Part shown: in pieces, positions 1-35,622 of the stretch
Position numbering within the stretch: the first letter of the stretch is position 1
How the letters are laid out: each line of letters opens with the position of its first letter
Virus record (IMG/VR): IMGVR_UViG_3300025150_000002
Location: 139,522-203,521 of that record
DNA from: a virus
Lineage: Duplodnaviria; Caudoviricetes
Reading direction: 5' to 3' (one strand)
DNA length: 64,000 nt
Notes under the pieces: model-generated
Database searches by the model: none
Seen by the model: the letters and a program-made list of their open reading frames with translations, nothing else
What the model was told of the DNA's origin: nothing
Position numbers and translations under genes: made by a program

Positions 1-2011
1 CCTCCTCTTCAGAGAGCTTTCCAGACCGGAACTTCTCATAGTCGAGTTTGTTGTGAATAGCGAAGAGCCGACGACGAACCTGCTTGGTCGGCATCTCCAT
101 TGAGACAACCAGCAGGCACTCACCAGGCCCGAGCTCCGGATCTCCCTTATTTGTGACTGCGGTCCAGATGTGGTCAACCCACTTCAGCAAAAGCCACGTG
201 TTATGGACGATCACATCGTTAGCGATGAAGCAGTGAGTTGGGATCACGGTCAGATCAAAGACTCGTCTCTCACCAACGCTCTCGACCATCACGATCTCAT
301 CCCACGTGATGTTGTCGTCGAGAACCCATCTGAGGTCTGAGTTGTAAACGTCGCAGAAGGCTTCAAACACCTTCCTCCGAATGCGGCCCGACTTGTAATC
401 CAGGACGTGGCTCTTCTGGAACGCGAAGTCGTAGCCGAGCTCCTCTCCAACCTCCTTGACCAACTCAGGCCGGTCCGACATCTCGGCCTTGATCTGGTCC
501 CAGAGCTCCTCGTTACGGATCCAGCCGACTCGGCTCCGGCCCTGAAACTTGATCTCCTGGAGCTTTGCTGCCTTCGGCCCGATGAGGTGCTGTCCAACCG
601 TCTGCTTGAATTTCTCGATGTGCTCCATGCGGATCACCACCTCGGAGTAGTCGCGCTCACCGTCCCTGGTGTTCCGGTGAATGGTTCGCACTCTCGAAGT
701 GACGCCGAACCTGAGGAGCAGGTGCTGAACCTGATCAGCCATCTTGCGAGAGCCGGTGGAGTAGCTGACAACCCCCTTCTTCTCAACCGATCCATCACAC
801 GACCACAAGCGCCCTAGAAAAAGGGCCAGCTGATGATTCGGAAGAGAGAACACAGCGTCAGGAATCGTCTTGTCGATTGATAGCTTTCCGTGAAGGTTGT
901 AAGACTTCAGCAGTTCAACGACACCGTTTCTTCCTCCGTGGAGTGTTACAACACGATGATTTCCAGGCTCATACTCATTGAGAGTGTGATCGGTTGTAGA
1001 GAGCGCCCCGTCCATATCCTCGACAATCTCTGGCACCGCACTTGTAAATGTAGGGGTCGATGGCTTGGTGCAACCACCCTCGGCGATCATGTAGGCCAGC
1101 ACCTTGATGGTTGCTGGTTCCATACACACAGGCGTTATCGGCTCAGGAAACACCGCCACAGCTGCAGTGTGATGTCCCTCCTGGAGCTCGTCGATCCTCT
1201 TCCAACCCGTAGGAGTCATCAACGGGTGTTCTGGCGTAGCGATAAGCGATCGACCGGACCTCCATGTGATCTTGAGACATTCCTTGATTCCCATATCGAG
1301 GTAGGCATCCGGTGACACACTGCGGAGAGGGGACGCCTTATCCCACGTGTGGAGCTGCCGAGTCCCCTCTCTGACAAACTCCTCAATGGGAAGTTGCACG
1401 CCTGTTCTAGCACAAATCACTGGAGTATCAGGACTTAGGCACTTGCCGGACTTTCGCTTAGCTAGGAGAACGGTGACCTCACCAGCCTGAAGGCCCAGGC
1501 TCGCTTTGTCACGAGACGGCCAGGGTGACGAGAACCCGAGCAGTCCACCATCGCGGCTCTTTGCGTCGAGGTAGTCGTCTTCGATTTCTGAGATAGCAGC
1601 CGCCGAGTTGGTGCTTATCACCGAACCAAGGCTCCAAGTGGTCTCCTTGACCAGGTCTCCTAGCGCGTCCCGGGCGGCGAACGGATCCTTGTAGACTTGC
1701 TCCGTGATCAGGTCCAGTCCGTCGGCCAGCTTATTCTGCAGCGTACGACGCATGATGTCTTGCGCGCATAGATCGACATCAAATTCAACGGCTGTCTCTT
1801 CGATGTCGATCGAGTAGTGCTGCCGAATCGTTGCCACGTTTGGCATCTTGCCCTTCGGCAAGAACACCTCCTCGAACGCGACGAAAATAGTGCGGTCATC
1901 GGCAGCAAGGATAAATTCTGCCTCGACCCCCATCGTTTTCGCCTTCTGAAAAGCGGGCACGCCGCCTTGCATAATGCTGTAGATGAGTGCCCGGTCTGGG
2001 TGGGTGTCCAC
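1..2011 (-). CDS. dnaB: DnaB-family replicative helicase with intein; 3' end runs off the window
   Basis: Manual translation from GTG at 2011 (overlaps upstream TAG): LGLQAGEVTVLLAKRKSGK|intein|TWLLL...VVSMEMPTKQVRRRL; absent from ORF track because no stop lies in the window. Confidence 0.9.
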   Translation of the reverse strand, partial: MDTHPDRALIYSIMQGGVPAFQKAKTMGVEAEFILAADDRTIFVAFEEVFLPKGKMPNVATIRQHYSIDIEETAVEFDVDLCAQDIMRRTLQNKLADGLDLITEQVYKDPFAARDALGDLVKETTWSLGSVISTNSAAAISEIEDDYLDAKSRDGGLLGFSSPWPSRDKASLGLQAGEVTVLLAKRKSGKCLSPDTPVICARTGVQLPIEEFVREGTRQLHTWDKASPLRSVSPDAYLDMGIKECLKITWRSGRSLIATPEHPLMTPTGWKRIDELQEGHHTAAVAVFPEPITPVCMEPATIKVLAYMIAEGGCTKPSTPTFTSAVPEIVEDMDGALSTTDHTLNEYEPGNHRVVTLHGGRNGVVELLKSYNLHGKLSIDKTIPDAVFSLPNHQLALFLGRLWSCDGSVEKKGVVSYSTGSRKMADQVQHLLLRFGVTSRVRTIHRNTRDGERDYSEVVIRMEHIEKFKQTVGQHLIGPKAAKLQEIKFQGRSRVGWIRNEELWDQIKAEMSDRPELVKEVGEELGYDFAFQKSHVLDYKSGRIRRKVFEAFCDVYNSDLRWVLDDNITWDEIVMVESVGERRVFDLTVIPTHCFIANDVIVHNTWLLLKWVDHIWTAVTNKGDPELGPGECLLVVSMEMPTKQVRRRLFAIHNKLDYEKFRSGKLSEEE
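200..1441 (-). mobile_element. LAGLIDADG intein (414 aa) in DnaB Walker A
   Basis: Starts CLSPDTPV after GK, ends CFIANDVIVHN before T; motifs VLAYMIAEGG and FLGRLWSCDGS. Confidence 0.93.
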
Positions 2012-2667
2012 TAGGACTCCTGTTCGGGATCGTTGCCCTTACGCCAGTTAAACCCTCTTACGCTGATCGAGTAGAAGCGAGAAGGGTCGACCAGAATAGA
2101 ACTGACAGATGGGTATTGTTTGATCAGCTCGGGAACCGGAAGGTTCGTTGTGATATAGGTGACGAGCCGGTCGTCGTAGCGACGTCTAATCAACTCTTCG
2201 ATGATCCGGATGTCCCCGGCCTTGTAACCGCCGGAGGCGAGCTCTGTACCGAGATCATCGATGGTCAGTAGCTGACTCCTTGTCAGCACTTCCCAGATCT
2301 CAATCCCATCACTGTTGGTCTCTGTCCACCGCTTCTCATAGGCGTGCTCAATGGAGGATGCTAGGCGGTGATAGCACTGGCCCCCGCGTGCCATGGCGGC
2401 CTTGAGCATTATCGATGCCACGCTGGTCTTTCCGTATCCGTGGTTACCCACGAACACGGCACCCTTGCCATTACGCTCATCTCGCGGAAGGTTGCTGATC
2501 ATGCTGATCAGCTTCACCTTGTGTGAGCAGGTATCCGGGACTCTTTGAACGCTCACCGGCCAGTAGGAGCGTCCGATCCCCGCGTTGCGGAGCATGGCCT
2601 TGGTGACCGAGAACGATGGTTCGGGAGAAAGCGGTCGGTGATAGAACTCAAGATCGCCATCAGGCAT
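2011..2667 (-). CDS. DnaC/IstB-like helicase loader ATPase
   Basis: Walker A GNHGYGKT, Walker B LLTIDDLGTE, RRYDDRLVTYITTNL; adjacent to DnaB. Confidence 0.85.
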   Translation of the reverse strand: MPDGDLEFYHRPLSPEPSFSVTKAMLRNAGIGRSYWPVSVQRVPDTCSHKVKLISMISNLPRDERNGKGAVFVGNHGYGKTSVASIMLKAAMARGGQCYHRLASSIEHAYEKRWTETNSDGIEIWEVLTRSQLLTIDDLGTELASGGYKAGDIRIIEELIRRRYDDRLVTYITTNLPVPELIKQYPSVSSILVDPSRFYSISVRGFNWRKGNDPEQES

Positions 2668-2675
2668 AACCGTAC

Positions 2676-4262
2676 CTACCCGTTGATCTGAGCACGGACG
2701 GCCGCAAACGGATCGTCATCATCATCACCGCTGGTGGTTTTACCCTCACCATCTACGACAGCCGAAGCCTTTCCGTGTCGCTTCGCGTAATTGTCCGCGT
2801 AGGCACTGTAGCGAACAGAAGGTGGTGAAATGATGCCCACGCCGATCAGCTGAGCCAGTCGATCGGCGTTGCAGTAAAACTGCTCGTAGTTTGGGTGTGG
2901 TCCGCCAGCCCACTTGAAGAACATCTTTGAGCGCTCGATGTTCTCGTAGTCGTCCACGAGTACCTGGATCATCTCGTAGAGCTGCTTCCGGTCGTAGCGC
3001 TTCAGGAGCTCGCTGCCCCACTTCATGTATTTCCCATCCGGGGCCTTAGCGAGACCAGCAGAAGGGAAACGGGTGAGAACCACCCTCCTGAAGTGGGTGA
3101 AGACCTGCCACGGGTTCTTCGGAACCTCGTCTACCGTCTCGGGGTCCGGGGTCGCCTCCTCGTAGATCTTCGAGGTGTCGGGTGAGATACCCTTGTCGCC
3201 GCCTGCGGAGCCTCCTACTGGGCTCCTACTGGTGACCACGTCCTTGATACCAGTTCGTGGTGTTCCCTTGCCCCTGACGCGCTCCAGACGCGCCCGGCGC
3301 TCCTCCTCTTGAGCCTTGGATGGCCTAGCCACATCGGTCTCCTTTTCTGACGCAGCGCGGCGTACAGACTCCGGTGCGGCGCGGCGTACAGACATCTGCT
3401 CTTGGTCACTTGTTGCGGTAGCGGTCGCGCCGCGCGTACGAGGGGGGACGCCCAAGGCACTCTTGTGCCTTGGTCCGTCCATCCCGTAAGGGATATCTAA
3501 GCTCTTCTCTAGAAGTTCATCTGTACCGGGGAGCAGTGGGTTGCCAGTACGGTGGCAACTGGTTGCCAGTACTACTGGCAACTGGTTGCCAGTACGGTGG
3601 CAACTGGTTGCCAGTACTACCCCCCCTAGTACTGGCAGTGGGTTGCCAGTACTAGGTGGTTCACCCCCCAAAATTACTGGCAACCCACTGCCAGTACTTG
3701 AGTCCGGCAGCCTCACGTTTGCAGCCAGTTGGGTGGCTCCATCATCCCGAGGGTCATCGCTTACGTGCGTCTCACCCTCATCGGCAGGTGTCTCCAGCGT
3801 GAACCCTCCGGTATACGTCTCGGGTCGTCCGGTCCGCCTCACGGCCTGTCGAGGTCGATAGGGACGACGCTGGAGGGTTTTCACGCCGCCCGAGGTCTCG
3901 ACGTAGGTCTTGGCGTCCAAGAGTCGGTTTGAGAGAAGCTCCTCTGGAGACATTATTGGAGGGGTCTCGTTGATGATGTAGACCGGGTAACGGTGGTCGT
4001 TGCCCACCGGCTGGATGGAGATCAACCCAGCGCGTTCGAGACTCCGTGTCGAGTTGAAGATGGTGCGCTCCGAGACCTTCATGATCCCTGCGAGGCACTG
4101 CTTGGTAAGCCTGCAGATCCTCGGCTCATTCGACTTGGTCTTCCGACAATAGGAGACCATGATCATGAATAGTCTTAGGTCGTTGCTGGTGATGTCTGGA
4201 GACCTAATGATGTCGTCAAAGACCTGCGAGAACAGGCGGGTCGGCTTCTTGTTGTCGCTCAC
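2676..4262 (-). CDS. Phage replication initiator (lambda O-like): N-terminal winged HTH, central repeat region
   Basis: N-terminal ITSNDLRLFMIM...LAGIMKVSERTIFNSTRSLERAGLI; internal DNA repeats; directly upstream of loader and helicase. Confidence 0.7.
   Translation of the reverse strand: MSDNKKPTRLFSQVFDDIIRSPDITSNDLRLFMIMVSYCRKTKSNEPRICRLTKQCLAGIMKVSERTIFNSTRSLERAGLISIQPVGNDHRYPVYIINETPPIMSPEELLSNRLLDAKTYVETSGGVKTLQRRPYRPRQAVRRTGRPETYTGGFTLETPADEGETHVSDDPRDDGATQLAANVRLPDSSTGSGLPVILGGEPPSTGNPLPVLGGVVLATSCHRTGNQLPVVLATSCHRTGNPLLPGTDELLEKSLDIPYGMDGPRHKSALGVPPRTRGATATATSDQEQMSVRRAAPESVRRAASEKETDVARPSKAQEEERRARLERVRGKGTPRTGIKDVVTSRSPVGGSAGGDKGISPDTSKIYEEATPDPETVDEVPKNPWQVFTHFRRVVLTRFPSAGLAKAPDGKYMKWGSELLKRYDRKQLYEMIQVLVDDYENIERSKMFFKWAGGPHPNYEQFYCNADRLAQLIGVGIISPPSVRYSAYADNYAKRHGKASAVVDGEGKTTSGDDDDDPFAAVRAQING
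3533..3697. repeat. Six iteron-like imperfect palindromes, TGGCA-N6-TGCCAGTAC; putative origin
   Basis: TGGCAACTGGTTGCCAGTAC x3, GCAGTGGGTTGCCAGTAC x2, one inverted copy at 3676-3697, all inside the initiator gene. Confidence 0.85.
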
Positions 4263-4582
4263 TTCGCACCCGCGCTGGCCAACTGTCTAAGGAGACTGTA
4301 CCCGTTGTCCAAGTGAAGCACTTCGATGTGCAACCAGGTTGAACCTTTGTCGACGCTGAGAAGCTCTAGCCCTACAAGCTTCTTCAGACCCTTGCGGACC
4401 GTAGAGACGCTGAAGTGGGTCTCCTTGGCGAGCTGGTCATAGCTGCCGTAGTCAGAGGGGTTGTGGTAATGAGTCCGATACTCGGCTGCGACGAAGAGGT
4501 AGATCAGCTTCTCTGAAGCTGTCAGGCCTGCATCACGAATGATGCGACCCGTTACCTCCGTCAGCGGTCTACGCCTTGGCAA
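4259..4582 (-). CDS. Winged-HTH DNA-binding protein (HTH_36-like)
   Basis: LTASEKLIYLFV...YDQLAKETHFSVSTVRKGLKKLVGLELL. Confidence 0.7.
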   Translation of the reverse strand: MPRRRPLTEVTGRIIRDAGLTASEKLIYLFVAAEYRTHYHNPSDYGSYDQLAKETHFSVSTVRKGLKKLVGLELLSVDKGSTWLHIEVLHLDNGYSLLRQLASAGAK

Positions 4583-4919
4583 CGAACTGCTCCGACGAGC
4601 TATTAAGCGTGATCAACCCGGTGTAGGGACCGCGCCTACTCTCGCGGGAGATAAACCCACGCTCCTCAAGTCGGACGAGCACTTCGGCCACTGTTCGCTT
4701 GGCGAGGCCGGTTCGATCGGCGATACCATCAAGACCATCGTCGATTTCTTTCGACTCGGTGCACAAGTCCATCAGGACAGCGAACACCCTAACCTCAGAC
4801 GAGGACAGAGTCCGATCGCTTACAAGTTGTCGAGGGACACGAAGATACCCATGTTCGCTGATAGACACACGAACCTCTAATCGATGAGTATTTTGTTGAA
4901 CCTGGGCGTTACAGCCCAA
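4569..4919 (-). CDS. Winged-HTH DNA-binding protein; true start probably downstream
   Basis: LSSSEVRVFAVLM...GIADRTGLAKRTVAEVLVRLEERGFI. Confidence 0.7.
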   Translation of the reverse strand: MGCNAQVQQNTHRLEVRVSISEHGYLRVPRQLVSDRTLSSSEVRVFAVLMDLCTESKEIDDGLDGIADRTGLAKRTVAEVLVRLEERGFISRESRRGPYTGLITLNSSSEQFVAKA

Positions 4920-5294
4920 GGGGCGAGTCTAGAAAGACTGGCAAGAATTGCAAGTCTTTCTCTTAAGACATCACAAACCAACAGCCGCAACTGAAGACAC
5001 AGCTTCGACTTTTATCGGGACCGCCAGGCTGGTCTTGCGGTGATGACGTGTGACCGCCAGTTAACCGTGCTTCTAGGGAGACGACGGGCGCCGATAATAC
5101 GACGGAGTTCGATAGCGTTGGTGAAGTGACCACCTCGAACCACGCAATCCAACAGATGGTCGAACTGGCACGACAGATAACCGCCGTCCAACGACGGGCC
5201 GTGCACCAGGTCAAGTGTGTGGAGCTCGAATGCCCCTGACTCGTAGTCGATGAACCCTCGCGATGAGAACGTGACTAACCCCTGAGTGATGAGA

Positions 5295-7205
5295 TTACGC
5301 CAGCGAGCGAGATCGCCATGAAACCCGACATCCACCATTATCCCAGGCTCCCCTGGCGGCTCGCCTGATGCCTGTCTCAGGACCCGACTCGAATCCCCAG
5401 GCACGTCCGCGCTGTTGTGCGTCGGGGGTGTATGGAAGATCTGAGGCGACGGCTGACGGCCAATAGGATCGGACGGACGGCATTGTGAACCAGGTGAATT
5501 CTCCGATGAGAGATCGGTTGGCCGGGGCGCGACCCTGTAGACATCTTGATTCTTGTTCAAGCATGGCCGCAGTAGCGGCTCGGATAAAGCTGTCGTCTCT
5601 GGAGAGGAGAGGGGTCCACTTCTCGACGAGGCTTGCGATGATGGAGTCGGGGTGAAGGTGGGCTGGAAAGATTGTGCTAAGTGCGGCACCTCCAGGCCGC
5701 CCTCGTTCCAATTCCGTCATCTGGCTCGTCGAACAGGCGCGGATCTCTGATGACGATACTGGCTGTGTCACAGGGCCAGCTGAGGCCTCGGACCGCGACT
5801 CTGACGCCACCGTTGTAGGCTCTGTGGATTCTGGCGAGCTCCCGCTCCCAGATTTCACGTGGGTAGATGCGACTGCTGTTGATGGGATGGATACAGGTGA
5901 ACGGGCGGCTGATACGAAAGGGTGGTCACCTCGCTCTCCAGGCGGATCGGAGTCCACAATCTGTTGGTGCTGAGCTGAGCTGTTGCCAGATTCGTTCTGC
6001 GTGCCAGGGCACGTGGGGGTAGGACGGTCCTCTGATACAAGCTCCTGGATCTGAAGATCGTTCAGGAACACGGTCATCGTAGGGTCCGGGCAGACCTCGC
6101 CATGAGCGACGAACCCGCTCACCGGAGCACCAGACGTGTTCTCGGACCACATGCAGCGCGTCCACTCGAAGACATTGCCGCAGTTGTCGTGGAGGCCCCA
6201 GTTGTTGGGGTCCTTCAGACCAACAGCCTTGTGCCCCTCTTCCCAGTCTCCACCGAACCAGGCGATCTTCTCTAGATCACTGTCGTTGTCTCCGTTCGGA
6301 TAGCGAGTGGTCGTGCCAGCCCGTGCCGCGTATTCCCACATAGCCTCTGACGGGAGCTGAAAGCCGCACCTTTCACCCTTCGAGTTCCAGAGCCAGGACT
6401 GATACGCCTTCTCTACCGGCTCAGAGAAGATCAGCGCACCGAACTCGCTGATGTCCACCTCACCATCGCTACGACGTGTGATGGGACCAAAAGGCGTGAG
6501 GTCGGCGATTCCGAATTCGACATCAAGCCACCGCACGTAGTCGGATCGCTTGTCGCCCTTTCCCACCCGGAAGAGGGCGTTGAAGCGCCTCGCGAAGTCG
6601 ATGCGATTGATCCAGTCCTCGACCTCGCGACACCGGTCCCAACTGACGGACTCGACAGGGTGGTCGCCCCAAAGCCGTTCATGATCGTCCGCTAGGTCCA
6701 GACGCACGGTGTCTGGAATTGATGGAACGCTTCGAGAGTCCTCTGATGTCGAGAACTCGGGGTGCAACTCCTCGACCATTGCCCTGGTAGGGAAGTGGGA
6801 TGGAAACTCACCCGTGACCCGATGCCACTCGCGGCCGGTCCACGGATATTTTGCCATCAAGAATGGCTCGTCGAAGACCCTCCGAACTGGAGCTGGAGGG
6901 TCCTCGTTTTCGTCTTCCTCATCGTCTTCGATGTCCTCGTCTTCGATGGATCGAGTAGGGCCCATCATGAACTCGCCGGCCGGGAGCAACACGAAGAGCA
7001 TCCCGGTTGTCTTGTGACGAAACTCGGCAAGTCCCTGAGCATTCAGCCCCGCCGCCGAGTAGAGGGTCGTCTCCTCTACTCGAAGGTGGTAGGGGATTTC
7101 GGCCCCAGACCGGCTAATTGCTGAGATCAGCTCTAGAAGATCATCGTGGGTTCTAGAGGAGTTGCTGTATCGGCGTTCTGCGTCGCGCAACCTGGCATCA
7201 GACAT
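5295..7205 (-). CDS. FGE-sulfatase (SUMF1/CLec fold) domain protein with a large C-terminal insertion
   Basis: PAGEFMMG, HPVESVSW, QLPSEAMWEYAARAGT, PNNWGLHDNCGNVFEW. Confidence 0.85.
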   Translation of the reverse strand: MSDARLRDAERRYSNSSRTHDDLLELISAISRSGAEIPYHLRVEETTLYSAAGLNAQGLAEFRHKTTGMLFVLLPAGEFMMGPTRSIEDEDIEDDEEDENEDPPAPVRRVFDEPFLMAKYPWTGREWHRVTGEFPSHFPTRAMVEELHPEFSTSEDSRSVPSIPDTVRLDLADDHERLWGDHPVESVSWDRCREVEDWINRIDFARRFNALFRVGKGDKRSDYVRWLDVEFGIADLTPFGPITRRSDGEVDISEFGALIFSEPVEKAYQSWLWNSKGERCGFQLPSEAMWEYAARAGTTTRYPNGDNDSDLEKIAWFGGDWEEGHKAVGLKDPNNWGLHDNCGNVFEWTRCMWSENTSGAPVSGFVAHGEVCPDPTMTVFLNDLQIQELVSEDRPTPTCPGTQNESGNSSAQHQQIVDSDPPGERGDHPFVSAARSPVSIPSTAVASTHVKSGSGSSPESTEPTTVASESRSEASAGPVTQPVSSSEIRACSTSQMTELERGRPGGAALSTIFPAHLHPDSIIASLVEKWTPLLSRDDSFIRAATAAMLEQESRCLQGRAPANRSLIGEFTWFTMPSVRSYWPSAVASDLPYTPDAQQRGRAWGFESGPETGIRRAARGAWDNGGCRVSWRSRSLA

Positions 7206-7229
7206 ATGCTGCTCCTAGACGTAGACCTT

Positions 7230-8903
7230 TTACCCGAAAAGGGAGAAGAAACCTCGCTTTGCTCCGGTGATGACGACTGTGAAGCTGGCGCTGTTGTTCA
7301 GGGTGCGTCCGTCGACCACCAGCCGCACCAGCCCCTTGACCTTGTTGCGGCCCAGATCACTGGTCGTCCAGGTCAGCCGGTGGCGAAGACCGTCCGGGGA
7401 TGTCGCGTAGCGCTGGGCCACACCCCTCAGGGCGCAAACCTTCCACGACCTACCACCATCGAGCGAGTAGTCGATTGAGACCGTAACGGGCCGCGAATCG
7501 CTGTTACGCAGCACAAAGGTGAGCTCCAGGTCGCCCTTTCCGGCGAACGACCCCTCCTTGAACCAGGCGTAGGTCAGGCCGGTGCTCGCGATGTCGTGGG
7601 TCTGACCGCCGACCGACCCGCTGAGCTTGAGGAGCTCGTCGCTGTTGAGCGGGCCGCGAAGGTAGCTGTAGGCCCACCGAATCTTGGTCACGGCATGATC
7701 GCCGGCTCGCTTGAGCACCAGGAAGTGACGCTGGGGGATCGCCGACAGCGTAGCCTGATCGACGTTCCGGTTCTCCAGCTCCTTCTTGAGGTCGCGGGCG
7801 CAGTCCCGAGGACGAAGGTTCCCGAGGAACCAGGTACCGACGTTGGTCAGCGCCTTGTAGTCCATGTCGTTCGGGTTCTGAGTCCCGATCAACATGCCGA
7901 TACCCTGAGCACGGCCCTGCGCCAGGAGGGTGCAGATCGGCTTCTTGGTCGGGGGATTCTTCGGGTAGGGCGGCAGGTAACCGCGCGCCTCATCGATTAC
8001 GACGAGCAGCTTCAGCTTGTTGCTCGCCGGCATGCGGAACATGTAGTCGACAATCGATGACAGCAGCATCGCTGCGAAGAACTGCCGCTCGTTCTCGTCC
8101 AGGTGGCGCAGGGTGAACACCGACACCTTGGGCTTGTCGGATCCTACATACCTGTCGACCGACAGGGGACCACCGTCTAGCCACTTGGCCGCCTGACGGC
8201 GGAAGCCGACAATGGACCGCGCGATCTGCATCCGGCGCTTCTTCGGGAAGAAGTCGTCCAGCTTAAGACCATCGATGGTCTGGAACTTCGCGGGCGGGTT
8301 GTTGAGCACGGCGGCCCAGGTCTCCAGTCCGGCGGGGGTTTGCGTCTGCCAGGCGTCGACCACGACATCGGTCAAGAGCACGTTTGCCGGGTCCGTCATG
8401 GGGTCGGCCGTGTGCCCGATCGCGCTAAGGATCGATGCGACAAGCGATGCGGCCCGATCACGCAGCGCCTGCTCGCTGTGATCCCCAACCGGACGGTCAA
8501 AGGAGGCCAACACGTTGACGGCCTGTCCGCCACCCTGGGTCTTACCCGGCGCGTAGATGGTGACCTCGGCTGAGTCTTTCCACCTCTTGACGTTAGGTGC
8601 CAGGTGACCAAGCTCATCACGGGCGCGCTCCGCCGCCTCTACTGGATCCTTGCCGTCCTCCATCCAGGGGGTGAACTCCTCGCTGGTCAGGTTGGGGAAT
8701 GCGAGCGCCAGGTTGGTGAGGTCGCCCTTAGGATCGATCACGATCGCAGAGGCACCGCTGAGGACAGCCTCCTCAATGATGGCGACCGTGGCTCCGGTCT
8801 TACCCGAGCCCGTCTTCCCCAGAACCACACCGTGGGTCGTAAGGTCAGCCGGGTCAATGGTCAGCTGCGATCCATCGTTCGTGTATCCGATCAGCATGGT
8901 CAT
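7230..8903 (-). CDS. HerA/FtsK-like (DUF87/DUF853-type) P-loop ATPase with C-terminal beta-rich domain
   Basis: THGVVLGKTGSGKT, IVIDPKGD, VVIDEA, GRAQGIGMLIGTQNP. Confidence 0.8.
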   Translation of the reverse strand: MTMLIGYTNDGSQLTIDPADLTTHGVVLGKTGSGKTGATVAIIEEAVLSGASAIVIDPKGDLTNLALAFPNLTSEEFTPWMEDGKDPVEAAERARDELGHLAPNVKRWKDSAEVTIYAPGKTQGGGQAVNVLASFDRPVGDHSEQALRDRAASLVASILSAIGHTADPMTDPANVLLTDVVVDAWQTQTPAGLETWAAVLNNPPAKFQTIDGLKLDDFFPKKRRMQIARSIVGFRRQAAKWLDGGPLSVDRYVGSDKPKVSVFTLRHLDENERQFFAAMLLSSIVDYMFRMPASNKLKLLVVIDEARGYLPPYPKNPPTKKPICTLLAQGRAQGIGMLIGTQNPNDMDYKALTNVGTWFLGNLRPRDCARDLKKELENRNVDQATLSAIPQRHFLVLKRAGDHAVTKIRWAYSYLRGPLNSDELLKLSGSVGGQTHDIASTGLTYAWFKEGSFAGKGDLELTFVLRNSDSRPVTVSIDYSLDGGRSWKVCALRGVAQRYATSPDGLRHRLTWTTSDLGRNKVKGLVRLVVDGRTLNNSASFTVVITGAKRGFFSLFG

Positions 8904-8991
8904 AGTCTGTTCTGCCTTTTAGGTGATCTCGGGTATCACCTGATAGGCGAACTGGTGCGGATGCATCGAGTTATCCGAAGGGGATCAAGCC

Positions 8992-9519
8992 GTGGCCATG
9001 AACATCAAGGAATTTTTCAAGGCGAGGGACGACTCTGATCGAAGAAGTCGGTTCAACCCTAACCGTAACCTTCGGCTGTCCTATGTTCGTACGGAGCCAA
9101 AGGGATGGCCGCTGACACGGCCTGCCACCAGTATCGAGTGGGCGCATGTGCTCAAGGTTATGATCATGCGCCGCGTCCCGAAGTCGGGACCGATACATCA
9201 GATCAAACTGATCCGGTACGTATCAGAGGACTTGTTGGCCGCCAGCGCGGCGGGCAAGATCTACGTAGACAATGACTTCGTCGAGATGCGAAGGGTCATG
9301 GGAGTCTTCGAGAACATGTGCGGACGAGATAGGACGCTGCGCACAGCCCCTTTCATGGAGGATCCGGATATGGCCTATGAAGCACCAGCTGTTTACAGAA
9401 CGGACGCGGCAGATCGCTGGCTGGAGAGGGTCCCGGTCGTCGTTATGGCGGTTGTGAACCAACTCCCAACTACGAGTGTACTCGACATGATGGTCCAGGC
9501 ATTGTTGGATGATGAGTAG
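8992..9519 (+). CDS. Hypothetical protein with LDxL tag
   Basis: Ends TSVLDMMVQALLDDE. Confidence 0.6.
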   Translation: MAMNIKEFFKARDDSDRRSRFNPNRNLRLSYVRTEPKGWPLTRPATSIEWAHVLKVMIMRRVPKSGPIHQIKLIRYVSEDLLAASAAGKIYVDNDFVEMRRVMGVFENMCGRDRTLRTAPFMEDPDMAYEAPAVYRTDAADRWLERVPVVVMAVVNQLPTTSVLDMMVQALLDDE

Positions 9520-9718
9520 GGAACCCATCCCCCGAGTGGACCACCGTTTTTGTGGTTTTGATGATCTTCCAGCTCCCTGAGCTGGGTAGCCCTAGCACGG
9601 CCGACGCGACGGCCTTTAGCGCGGCGTCCTCGCTGGTGAACGCCCCAGCATTGCAGAGCAGGACCCCACGTCGACTAAACAGGAGCAGGGTGTAGTTGAC
9701 ATCGTTGGGTTGATCCAC
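9470..9718 (-). CDS. Hypothetical protein
   Basis: Co-oriented behind 9731 ORF; 3' end overlaps opposite-strand gene. Confidence 0.4.
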   Translation of the reverse strand: MDQPNDVNYTLLLFSRRGVLLCNAGAFTSEDAALKAVASAVLGLPSSGSWKIIKTTKTVVHSGDGFPTHHPTMPGPSCRVHS

Positions 9719-34628: not shown

Positions 34629-35622
34629 TTGCCAGGTCGACCGCTTCGGGCGTCTTGATGACCCGGAAGAACTCAGGTCGCACGACCGTGATCTTGTGAC
34701 GCGTTCGGATCGCGCGCCGCAGCGACATGCCGTTGGGGTCAACGAAGTTCGGCGTCACAGTCACCATCGTATAGGGGCTGTAGACGATGCCTGTATCAAG
34801 CATGCCGCCCTGGTACCAGGTCATCAGGTGGCTCTTCGGAAAGAGCGGGTCCAGGTAGACGGTCTTACTTGTAGGCCCCTCGCCTAGAGTCCCCACCTTC
34901 TGGACTTGACCGTTGCTGATCGGAACGCTGATGCCAAGTTTGACCAGCGTTTCCTCATTTCCGATGACCCTGTTGGCAGGCATTCGCTGGGTACGCTGGT
35001 GGACACGGTTCGACGTACGAGATAGCTCTTCTAGCAGATCACAGTCTTCTGATACCAGATCTGTGTTGCTCGGGAGCAGGGCTATGTTGAGCATCGTGCC
35101 CAGGATTTCGCGCGTGATCTCAGTCAGGAACTCCTCGACCGCTAGGTCGAGCACACTGATGTCGCCTATGAGAGATTTGACTCTTCTGGTTTCGGCACAG
35201 ATGTCCTGGTCGGCGATTTTCAACCTGATCTCAGGAACCGTGACCTGGGTCGGCTTACCGGTCGTCTGGTTGGTGACGGTTATCTCAACCGTCCCACCAG
35301 TCTTCGGCTGATACCACAAAATGATACCGATCGGCCCGAGCATTGGCTGCGTGCTGCAGAGGTCAGGCAGGGGGTGCGCCTGCAGCTGAGCTTTGAGGGC
35401 GTCCCCGATTTTCTCGTGCCAGGTGTCGGGAAAGACTAGACCTCTCGTCTCCTCAGCCAACTGCTTGAAGTGCTTGTCCTGGTTCTCCAGGACGGCGGCG
35501 ATGAGATTCGAGCGATCGTTGTCGTTTTCAAGACCCCACTTTGCGCGCAAGCGCTCCAGGGTCGCTAGAGTTGCGGTGGGCGGGTTGGTTGCCATGTTAC
35601 CTCCAGTGATGGATGGTACCAC
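34612..35622 (-). CDS. Divergent T4 gp23-like major capsid paralogue (start probably 35595)
   Basis: AAVLENQ, STQPMLGPIG, AETRRVK, EITREIL, VYLDP, DTGIVYSPY, RTRH. Confidence 0.75.
   Translation of the reverse strand: MVPSITGGNMATNPPTATLATLERLRAKWGLENDNDRSNLIAAVLENQDKHFKQLAEETRGLVFPDTWHEKIGDALKAQLQAHPLPDLCSTQPMLGPIGIILWYQPKTGGTVEITVTNQTTGKPTQVTVPEIRLKIADQDICAETRRVKSLIGDISVLDLAVEEFLTEITREILGTMLNIALLPSNTDLVSEDCDLLEELSRTSNRVHQRTQRMPANRVIGNEETLVKLGISVPISNGQVQKVGTLGEGPTSKTVYLDPLFPKSHLMTWYQGGMLDTGIVYSPYTMVTVTPNFVDPNGMSLRRAIRTRHKITVVRPEFFRVIKTPEAVDLATTRTA

Follow-up and report, generated by a model that had tools for sequence, protein, structure and literature searches.

Where does DNA replication begin in a large uncultured phage, and does a cluster of palindromic repeats inside a putative initiator gene mark the place? 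We followed this question in the IMG/VR record IMGVR_UViG_3300025150_000002 (Caudoviricetes), a linear virus record of 203,521 bp with a CheckV completeness of 89%. The stretch analysed here, hereafter called the window, comprises the last 64 kb of that record (64,000 nucleotides, record positions 139,522 to 203,521). An initial annotation of the window, made from its letters alone, had described six TGGCA-N6 repeats inside the open reading frame (ORF) of a lambda-O-like initiator, with DnaC-like and DnaB genes following it and two stand-alone winged helix-turn-helix (wHTH) paralogues preceding it. Our analysis indicates that window positions 3480-3697 are very probably the vegetative replication origin of this phage, located in the linker region of the initiator gene and bound by the 528-aa protein that the gene encodes (Table 1).

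The array was found as described with respect to count, place and motif, with the left arm of one repeat being degenerate. Its six units are located at 3531-3550, 3553-3572, 3573-3595, 3598-3617, 3630-3652 and 3675-3697 (plus strand), within the part of the gene that encodes a predicted disordered linker (approximately residues 189-244). All six share the 3′ end TGCCAGTAC, which is preceded by TGGCA-N6 in five units; the unit at 3531-3550, nearest to the AT-rich stretch described below, carries GAGCA instead of TGGCA. The units starting at 3573, 3630 and 3675 are perfect 22-bp palindromes of the form TACTGGCA-N6-TGCCAGTA, and the right half-sites start 22, 23, 22, 35 and 45 bp apart. Units are present in both orientations, including two 24-nt arms with full complementarity. 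The TGCCAGTA half-site has nine copies in the window, all between 3542 and 3696 (expected 1.06), a number reached in 0 of 100 shuffles. Likewise, TGGCA-N6-TGCCAGTA with at most one mismatch on either strand gave eight matches, all at 3553-3696, against 0.08 expected and again with no shuffle out of 100 giving as many. Throughout the 203,521 bp this 19-nt pattern was found at the array only, its reversed control gave 0 matches, and the five genomic matches to TGGCA-N6-TGCCA all lie inside the array. A search of viral contigs for the 22-nt palindrome yielded 26 loci with one site each, which we consider to be chance occurrences.

The repeat is maintained as a DNA signal rather than as a peptide repeat. 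Starting 22, 23, 22, 35 and 45 bp apart, the half-sites do not keep to multiples of three, and the six TACTGGCA copies on the coding strand fall into reading frames 2, 1, 2, 1, 2 and 2. Depending on the frame, the DNA of a unit accordingly yields either 'STGNPLPVL' or 'VLATSC'. All nine half-sites are identical in their 8-nt sequence, without any synonymous variation. Since the units are read in two frames while the half-site stays unchanged, it is the DNA that is kept and not the peptide; the alternative raised at the outset, that these might be protein-level repeats varying by synonymous changes, does not describe what we found.

In the coding sense the array is followed by a GGTACAGA box and then by the least stable 40-mer of the whole ORF (3487-3526). 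The A+T content of this 40-mer is 62.5% (the genome has about 58% G+C), and the nearest-neighbour dG of -46.9, compared with a genome mean of -58.7 (standard deviation 3.4; z 3.5), corresponds to a genome quantile of 4.9e-5 and to the third least stable region genome-wide. A GC-skew analysis of the full record, as had been proposed, placed the global cumulative G-C minimum over all 203,521 bp at window position 3842, about 150 bp from the array and in a shallow trough. The only DnaA-box-like site detected in the window, with one mismatch, lies at 9711; the surroundings of the origin have none.

Comparison with related loci shows that this arrangement is a recurring one. We collected ten of them, one from viral contigs (L035) and nine from metagenomes (L036-L044), making 11 together with the window; L037 and L041 start past the linker, so that the linker is covered by nine loci including the window. 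Searching for related loci with the single protein returned none, and searching with the alignment returned none in genome contigs and none further in viral contigs. An array lies inside the initiator ORF in all nine linker-covering loci. Strict locus-specific cores comprise three to seven units per locus and were matched only within the initiator ORF, at approximately residues 160-235 in the eight loci in which the ORF start is present, with a unit spacing of mostly 21-23 bp or multiples thereof. The iterons themselves differ by lineage: L038 has TACTGGCAGT-NN-ACTGCCAGTA, L035 has GGGCAGT-NN-ACTGCCC, L040 has ATGGAAC-N4-GTTCCAT, L036 has CATGAACTCCAGTTCAT, and L039, L042, L043 and L044 have other forms. 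Under the strict cores, units occur in more than one frame in seven of nine loci, the exceptions being L038 and the window, whose full half-site set spans two frames as shown above; in L035 and L040 the units are read in three frames. The least stable 40-mer of the ORF begins 19-35 bp after the last iteron start in seven of the nine loci, and in five of these seven it is the least stable of the entire locus. An exact or one-off copy of the GGTACAGA box is found in four of nine loci (the window, L036, L039 and L042), looser versions are visible in others, and across the loci the box is read in three reading frames. In the four loci with GGCA-type iterons the initiator recognition helix has the sequence ERT[IV][FY][ND]S, and in loci with other iterons it differs.

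A further conserved motif, CCTAACGG / CCTTACGG / CCTAATGG, is located about 55-70 bp past the last iteron start in eight of the nine loci (not in L043). It encodes Pro-Asn/Tyr-Gly, of which P258 and G260 vary little or not at all across the family.

The domain layout of the 528-aa protein matches the position of the array. An AlphaFold2 model showed a confident wHTH domain at approximately residues 15-100 and a helical C-terminal domain at residues 361-500, and the linker residues 129-311, with predicted local distance difference test (pLDDT) scores below 50, contain all iteron-encoded residues. Residues 18-120, approximately, resemble the DNA-binding domains of CRP and MarR (Z 8-10.6). In a Foldseek search of the PDB with the N-terminal domain, the RepA_N-type plasmid initiator chains 4pql, 4pt7 and 5kbj were among the best, though weak, rows (E 0.008-0.026, template modelling score by target approximately 0.44-0.48), and a sequence profile search of the PDB returned only weak generic wHTH rows (E ≥ 0.02). 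The C-terminal domain was also folded alone from 37 rows (the window protein and 36 relatives, excluding four matches that covered the N-terminus only), which gave a model with a pLDDT of 87. Mean identity to the window protein was 42.6% for the C-terminal domain, 34.8% for the N-terminal domain and 17.9% for the linker, calculated from relatives with at least 60% coverage of the respective region (17 for the N-terminal domain, 18 for the others).

When 1.84 billion representatives were searched exhaustively with phmmer, the protein matched 40 proteins at E ≤ 1e-3, the query included, of which 19 were chosen for near full length and aligned. Five of these 19 matched phrog_270; the PHROG 'replication initiation protein' and 'DnaD-like helicase loader' families were likewise matched by five members each, and the 'replication initiation O-like' families by one member each. 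Pfam matches among the 19 were to generic wHTH models only (HTH_Crp_2 in six, HTH_36 in three, HVO_A0261_N in three, HTH_24 in two, MarR and MarR_2 in one each), with no match to the lambda O model (Phage_rep_O). By tblastn the initiator had no match in 50,697 phage records and no homologue in 72,556 plasmid records, and blastn of window positions 2000-5000 against the phage records gave no match.

The genes downstream of the initiator are those expected from the initial annotation, a DnaC-like gene followed by a DnaB gene. The loader matched phrog_50, annotated as 'DnaC-like helicase loader', and phrog_3277 (1e-13), and reached 6.4e-5 with Pfam IstB_IS21 (23.0 bits, just under the 24.1-bit cut-off); its Walker-type GxxGxGKT motif is invariant in six homologues. 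In five of the ten related loci (L036, L037, L040, L043 and L044) the loader gene directly follows the initiator gene and a DnaB-like gene comes next. The DnaB-like gene of the window is interrupted by an intein with a LAGLIDADG endonuclease (LAGLIDADG_3, 1.5e-18) and gave a DnaB_C fragment (0.0047), and its intein-free homologue of 461 aa in L037 matched DnaB_C at 4.8e-12. Past the DnaB-like gene, L037 encodes a Toprim/DnaG-like primase and then a ResIII helicase, and ORFs of similar size are found in L043 and L044. With 870 aa in L043 and at least 802 aa in L036, the DnaB-like homologues of these two loci are long enough to contain an intein.

Taken together, these features suggest the following course of initiation. 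Dimers of the initiator N-terminal winged helix would bind the six iterons, which are mostly phased by about two helical turns, and the resulting nucleoprotein complex would strain and open the adjoining low-stability stretch at 3487-3526. The conserved helical C-terminal domain might then recruit the phage DnaC-like loader and the DnaB helicase, encoded immediately downstream and followed in relatives by genes for a DnaG-type primase and a ResIII helicase. Replication would proceed bidirectionally from the origin in theta mode. Transcription of the module probably starts at a conserved promoter-like block that precedes the first wHTH gene, and would in that case pass through the origin.

A number of observations weigh against this interpretation or limit parts of it. 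Because the trough of the cumulative skew is shallow and extends over about 5.8 kb (from window position 1868 to 7628 if values up to 30 units from the minimum are counted), the chance that the skew minimum coincides with the array is roughly 0.03 on its own. Plus-strand skew differs between the two sides of the site, being lower on the left (p 0.014 for plus-strand genes, p 0.004 for minus-strand genes), but the sides were defined by the skew extremes themselves. The test is therefore partly circular and shows just that gene orientation leaves part of the effect unexplained. Among the relatives, the units of L043 are mainly direct rather than dyad repeats, and in L038 and L036 the least stable 40-mer lies elsewhere in the ORF. 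The recognition helix pattern fits a co-evolution of initiator and iterons, although phylogeny confounds it. A Pfam scan with the 528-aa protein gave no family match, and its match to the PHROG 'replication initiation protein' family is weak (E 0.003). The suggested loader-recruiting role of the C-terminal domain is drawn by analogy and from gene order, since this domain had no clear structural relative among 48,161 PDB chains (best Z 3.9). SPP1 G39P (Z 3.8) and the DnaD-like chain 2zc2 (Z 3.4) appeared as low rows among unrelated AAA+ lid rows, BFVD yielded no match to the domain at E ≤ 1e-3, and the C-terminal domains of five family members matched nothing in Pfam at E up to 10, including Phg_2220_C. 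The ESM Atlas feature search pointed to C-terminal parts of phage replication proteins and to a Phg_2220_C cluster (0.92), both of which we regard as leads only. Finally, the generic scan for sigma-70 promoters and terminators did not exceed shuffles and missed the promoter-like block.

The two small genes upstream of the initiator, whose products may control copy number or origin licensing according to the initial annotation, raise the question of which protein reads the iterons. All three proteins are predicted, from sequence and structural models, to carry a wHTH DNA-binding domain. The claim that the small ones are paralogues of the initiator N-terminus stands at the profile level and does not extend to pairwise comparison: the motif resemblance is real and hhalign aligned the 99-aa and the 107-aa protein each to initiator residues 8-86, approximately, with 96% probability (E about 4-5e-9) and to one another with 90% probability, but BLASTP found no similarity among the three. 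They thus appear to be distant homologues of the initiator DNA-binding domain. The upstream wHTH gene, as a 116-aa open frame, matched TrmB at 8e-6 (26.1 bits, cut-off 25.6 bits). Its start is likely the GTG at 4868, as judged from the locus alignments and from the length of its homologues, mostly 96-99 aa. This 99-aa protein has 31 other clusters, and because all of them are 65-82% identical to it, its conservation is far higher than that of the initiator. An alignment was made of 24 of the 32 clusters, with eight shorter fragments left out. Homologues of the 107-aa protein were found only in L035 (60% identity) and L043 (21%). Its gene is present in three of six loci with readable upstream DNA, and a word search with the protein returned its own cluster only. 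The 107-aa wHTH therefore looks like an optional accessory.

One could imagine that the iterons are bound chiefly by a small wHTH protein, the 107-aa one being the most plausible candidate, or that such a protein competes for them, in either case as an anti-initiator made up of a DNA-binding domain only, with the 528-aa protein serving mainly as a scaffold. The profile-level homology of both small proteins to the initiator DNA-binding domain would be in keeping with this idea, as would the fact that the 107-aa protein, like the iterons, is not the same in the window and in L035, and that its stop codon overlaps the initiator start (GTGA) in an apparent translational coupling. However, L038, L039 and L040 lack the 107-aa gene and all have arrays, and the initiator has a confident wHTH of its own. 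The 99-aa protein in turn has an identical recognition helix in the L035 (P0044) and L040 (P0047) lineages, with a wing differing by one residue, despite the differing iterons of the two; for this reason it probably does not bind iterons. We thus consider it unlikely that either small protein takes the place of the initiator at the array.

Rather than the iterons, the 99-aa wHTH would most likely bind a conserved target, for example a dyad in the promoter-like block. This block contains the pair TTGCAA (4953-4948) and TAGACT (4931-4926) with a 16-nt spacer, which looks like a -35/-10 pair, and is overlaid by a palindrome at 4960-4932 with 14-nt arms and two mismatches. The motif GRAAAGACTTGMAAT...CTASACT is conserved in all four aligned loci and has one copy in the genome. 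Whether the 99-aa protein regulates the operon at this dyad is, in our view, an evenly balanced question. Autoregulation by the initiator was also considered, as an iteron-like half-site, TTGCCAGTC, is present at the dyad. We do not claim it, because by eye this half-site has no iteron-like counterpart at the corresponding position in L035, L038 and L039. Just upstream of the block, at 4983-5004 on the minus strand, there is a terminator-like hairpin with a T-rich tail, a possible insulator between the replication operon and the gene upstream of it. Rfam had 0 matches in window positions 1-9000. A more speculative possibility, which we put forward tentatively, is that three homologous wHTH domains govern replication together, namely a fast-evolving initiator, a near-invariant 99-aa controller, made up of the DNA-binding domain alone, that would time or license the firing of a single bidirectional origin in a phage with a T4-type capsid gene, and the optional 107-aa protein. 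The initiator might in that case co-evolve with its intragenic iterons, and the 99-aa protein may act through the promoter dyad or through the initiator.

Considerably less probable is that the array serves as a partition (centromere-like), packaging or operator site and that the origin lies elsewhere. wHTH proteins such as TubR do bind repeat arrays, TubR chains were among the weak Foldseek rows for the N-terminal domain (E about 0.012-0.022), and the array palindromes would fold strongly as single strands (z -8.45). In all nine linker-covering loci, however, the array is found within the initiator gene; it lies upstream of loader and helicase genes and, in seven of the nine, beside a low-stability stretch, and in the window the skew minimum coincides with it. 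The record, moreover, had 0 matches to each of Tubulin, CbiA/ParA and ParB_N. The same was true of Phage_integrase, Resolvase and Peptidase_S24, and these six family searches matched in 9 to 14 of 14 control genomes. The initial annotation had seen a hint of a temperate or plasmid-like lifestyle and suggested looking for parAB or an integrase; no lysogeny or partition families were matched in that search. Nothing thus supports such a habit, although up to 11% of the genome is possibly missing and the absence is not proof. Least probable of all is that the repeats are a low-complexity peptide linker with no role as DNA: the array does encode a predicted disordered linker, and repeated peptides occur there in relatives too, but the frame analysis contradicts this idea, with two frames in the window and three in L035 and L040, units in both orientations including the fully complementary arms, nine half-sites free of synonymous variation and a GGTACAGA box read in three frames across loci.

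With the array read as an origin inside the initiator gene, the locus can be compared to known systems. For lambda and Stx phage O, published work describes an origin in the middle of the initiator gene with four to six iterons, imperfect inverted repeats and an AT-rich flank on one side, and additional iterons that add residues to the protein (PMC7466680). Our locus resembles this in having six dyad units and a low-stability flank in a linker-coding region, with a loader gene next. Unlike in lambda, the C-terminal domain belongs to no family, the loader is DnaC/IstB-like instead of P-like, the phage encodes its own DnaB, and there are two extra stand-alone wHTH genes. The 528-aa initiator is longer than lambda O. 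The record, at 203 kb or more and with a Gp23-type capsid gene, also differs from a lambdoid temperate phage. For SPP1, published work gives the gene order as organizer G38P, loader G39P and helicase G40P, and describes oriL as embedded in gene 38 with AB boxes adjoining an AT-rich DNA-unwinding element, and G38P as an initiator without an AAA+ domain that is assigned to pfam09524 (PMC5737612). The window shares with SPP1 the order of initiator, loader and helicase as well as an intragenic origin with repeats beside an unwinding stretch; it differs in that the iterons are dyad-symmetric with mostly 22-23 bp phasing and that a second origin copy was not found in the record. A winged-helix initiator domain is also shared with iteron-plasmid Rep proteins (staphylococcal RepA_N), which bind repeats beside an unwinding element; unlike in these plasmids, the origin of the window is intragenic, and the plasmid records contained no homologue.

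The locus therefore has the lambda-type origin layout, with dyad repeats inside the initiator gene and an AT-rich flank. As for the designation 'lambda-O-like', it fits the layout and logic of the locus, with iterons in the initiator gene and loader and helicase genes next, and does not fit the protein family, as 0 of 19 members matched the lambda O Pfam model. By sequence, the initiator does not appear to be a member of either the lambda O or the SPP1 G38P family, and we file the locus accordingly as a variant of a known design. The variant features are an initiator family known from metagenomes only, a C-terminal domain with no assigned family, a loader of the DnaC-like kind and a DnaB that are both encoded by the phage, and one or two stand-alone homologues of the DNA-binding domain.

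The wider genomic context is that of a large phage. From 4919 down to 2 every gene of the window is on the minus strand. The initial annotation had mentioned a gp23-like gene, and the record indeed contains a Gp23-family capsid gene (E 2.4e-60), located outside the window at genome positions 7488-8612; a second, weak Gp23-family match (E 2.2e-10) lies in the window at 34693-35151 on the minus strand, in a 342-aa open frame. The identical 528-aa initiator is recorded on a contig of 368,865 bp, as are proteins identical to the 99-aa and 107-aa ones. Since the identical initiator sits on that contig, the complete phage genome may be much larger than the 203.5-kb record. Beside the replication operon, at 5295-7205 on the minus strand, a 636-aa protein with an FGE-sulfatase domain (7.9e-24) and a long Ser/Thr/Pro-rich tail is encoded; its homologues are longer than 1,100 aa in L035 and L039, where they include repeats resembling 'PGE(P/R)GD'. 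Positions 7230-8903 (minus strand) encode a 557-aa HerA/FtsK/TrwB-like ATPase (DUF87, 1.4e-9), and a partial ORF clearly similar to this ATPase is found upstream of the replication module in L035.

Table 1. Features of the putative replication module, with positions given in window coordinates.
Feature	Position	Strand	Basis
99-aa stand-alone wHTH	4569-4868 (frame open to 4919)	minus	phrog_270, 2.5e-11
107-aa stand-alone wHTH (HTH_36)	4259-4582	minus	Pfam HTH_36, 7e-8
528-aa initiator	2676-4262	minus	ORF; wHTH N-domain, disordered linker, helical C-domain
DnaC/IstB-like helicase loader, 218 aa	2011-2667	minus	phrog_50, 8.3e-17
DnaB-like replicative helicase with intein	2-2011 (runs off the window start)	minus	Intein_splicing, 2.9e-20
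Iteron array, six dyad-symmetric units	3531-3697		Sequence, shuffle enrichment, genome uniqueness
GGTACAGA box of the coding strand, adjoining the array	3520-3527	minus	Matched across loci
Candidate DNA-unwinding element	3480-3527		Nearest-neighbour dG
Conserved promoter-like block	4926-4960	minus	Alignment of four loci

The design is not surprising in principle, as lambda and SPP1 set the precedent decades ago. What the locus adds is a putative origin, narrowed down to about 220 bp, and the associated set of initiator, loader and helicase in a clade of large phages that are uncultured and have no relative in the cultured-phage collection that was searched with the initiator. The layout of an origin inside the initiator gene thereby extends to an initiator family that Pfam does not describe, and the arrays offer a natural example of a DNA signal that is preserved while being read in three reading frames. 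The strongly conserved 99-aa winged-helix protein is a candidate regulator of replication in this clade, and the origin together with its proteins could be a starting point for building minireplicons of these phages or for replicating their DNA in vitro.

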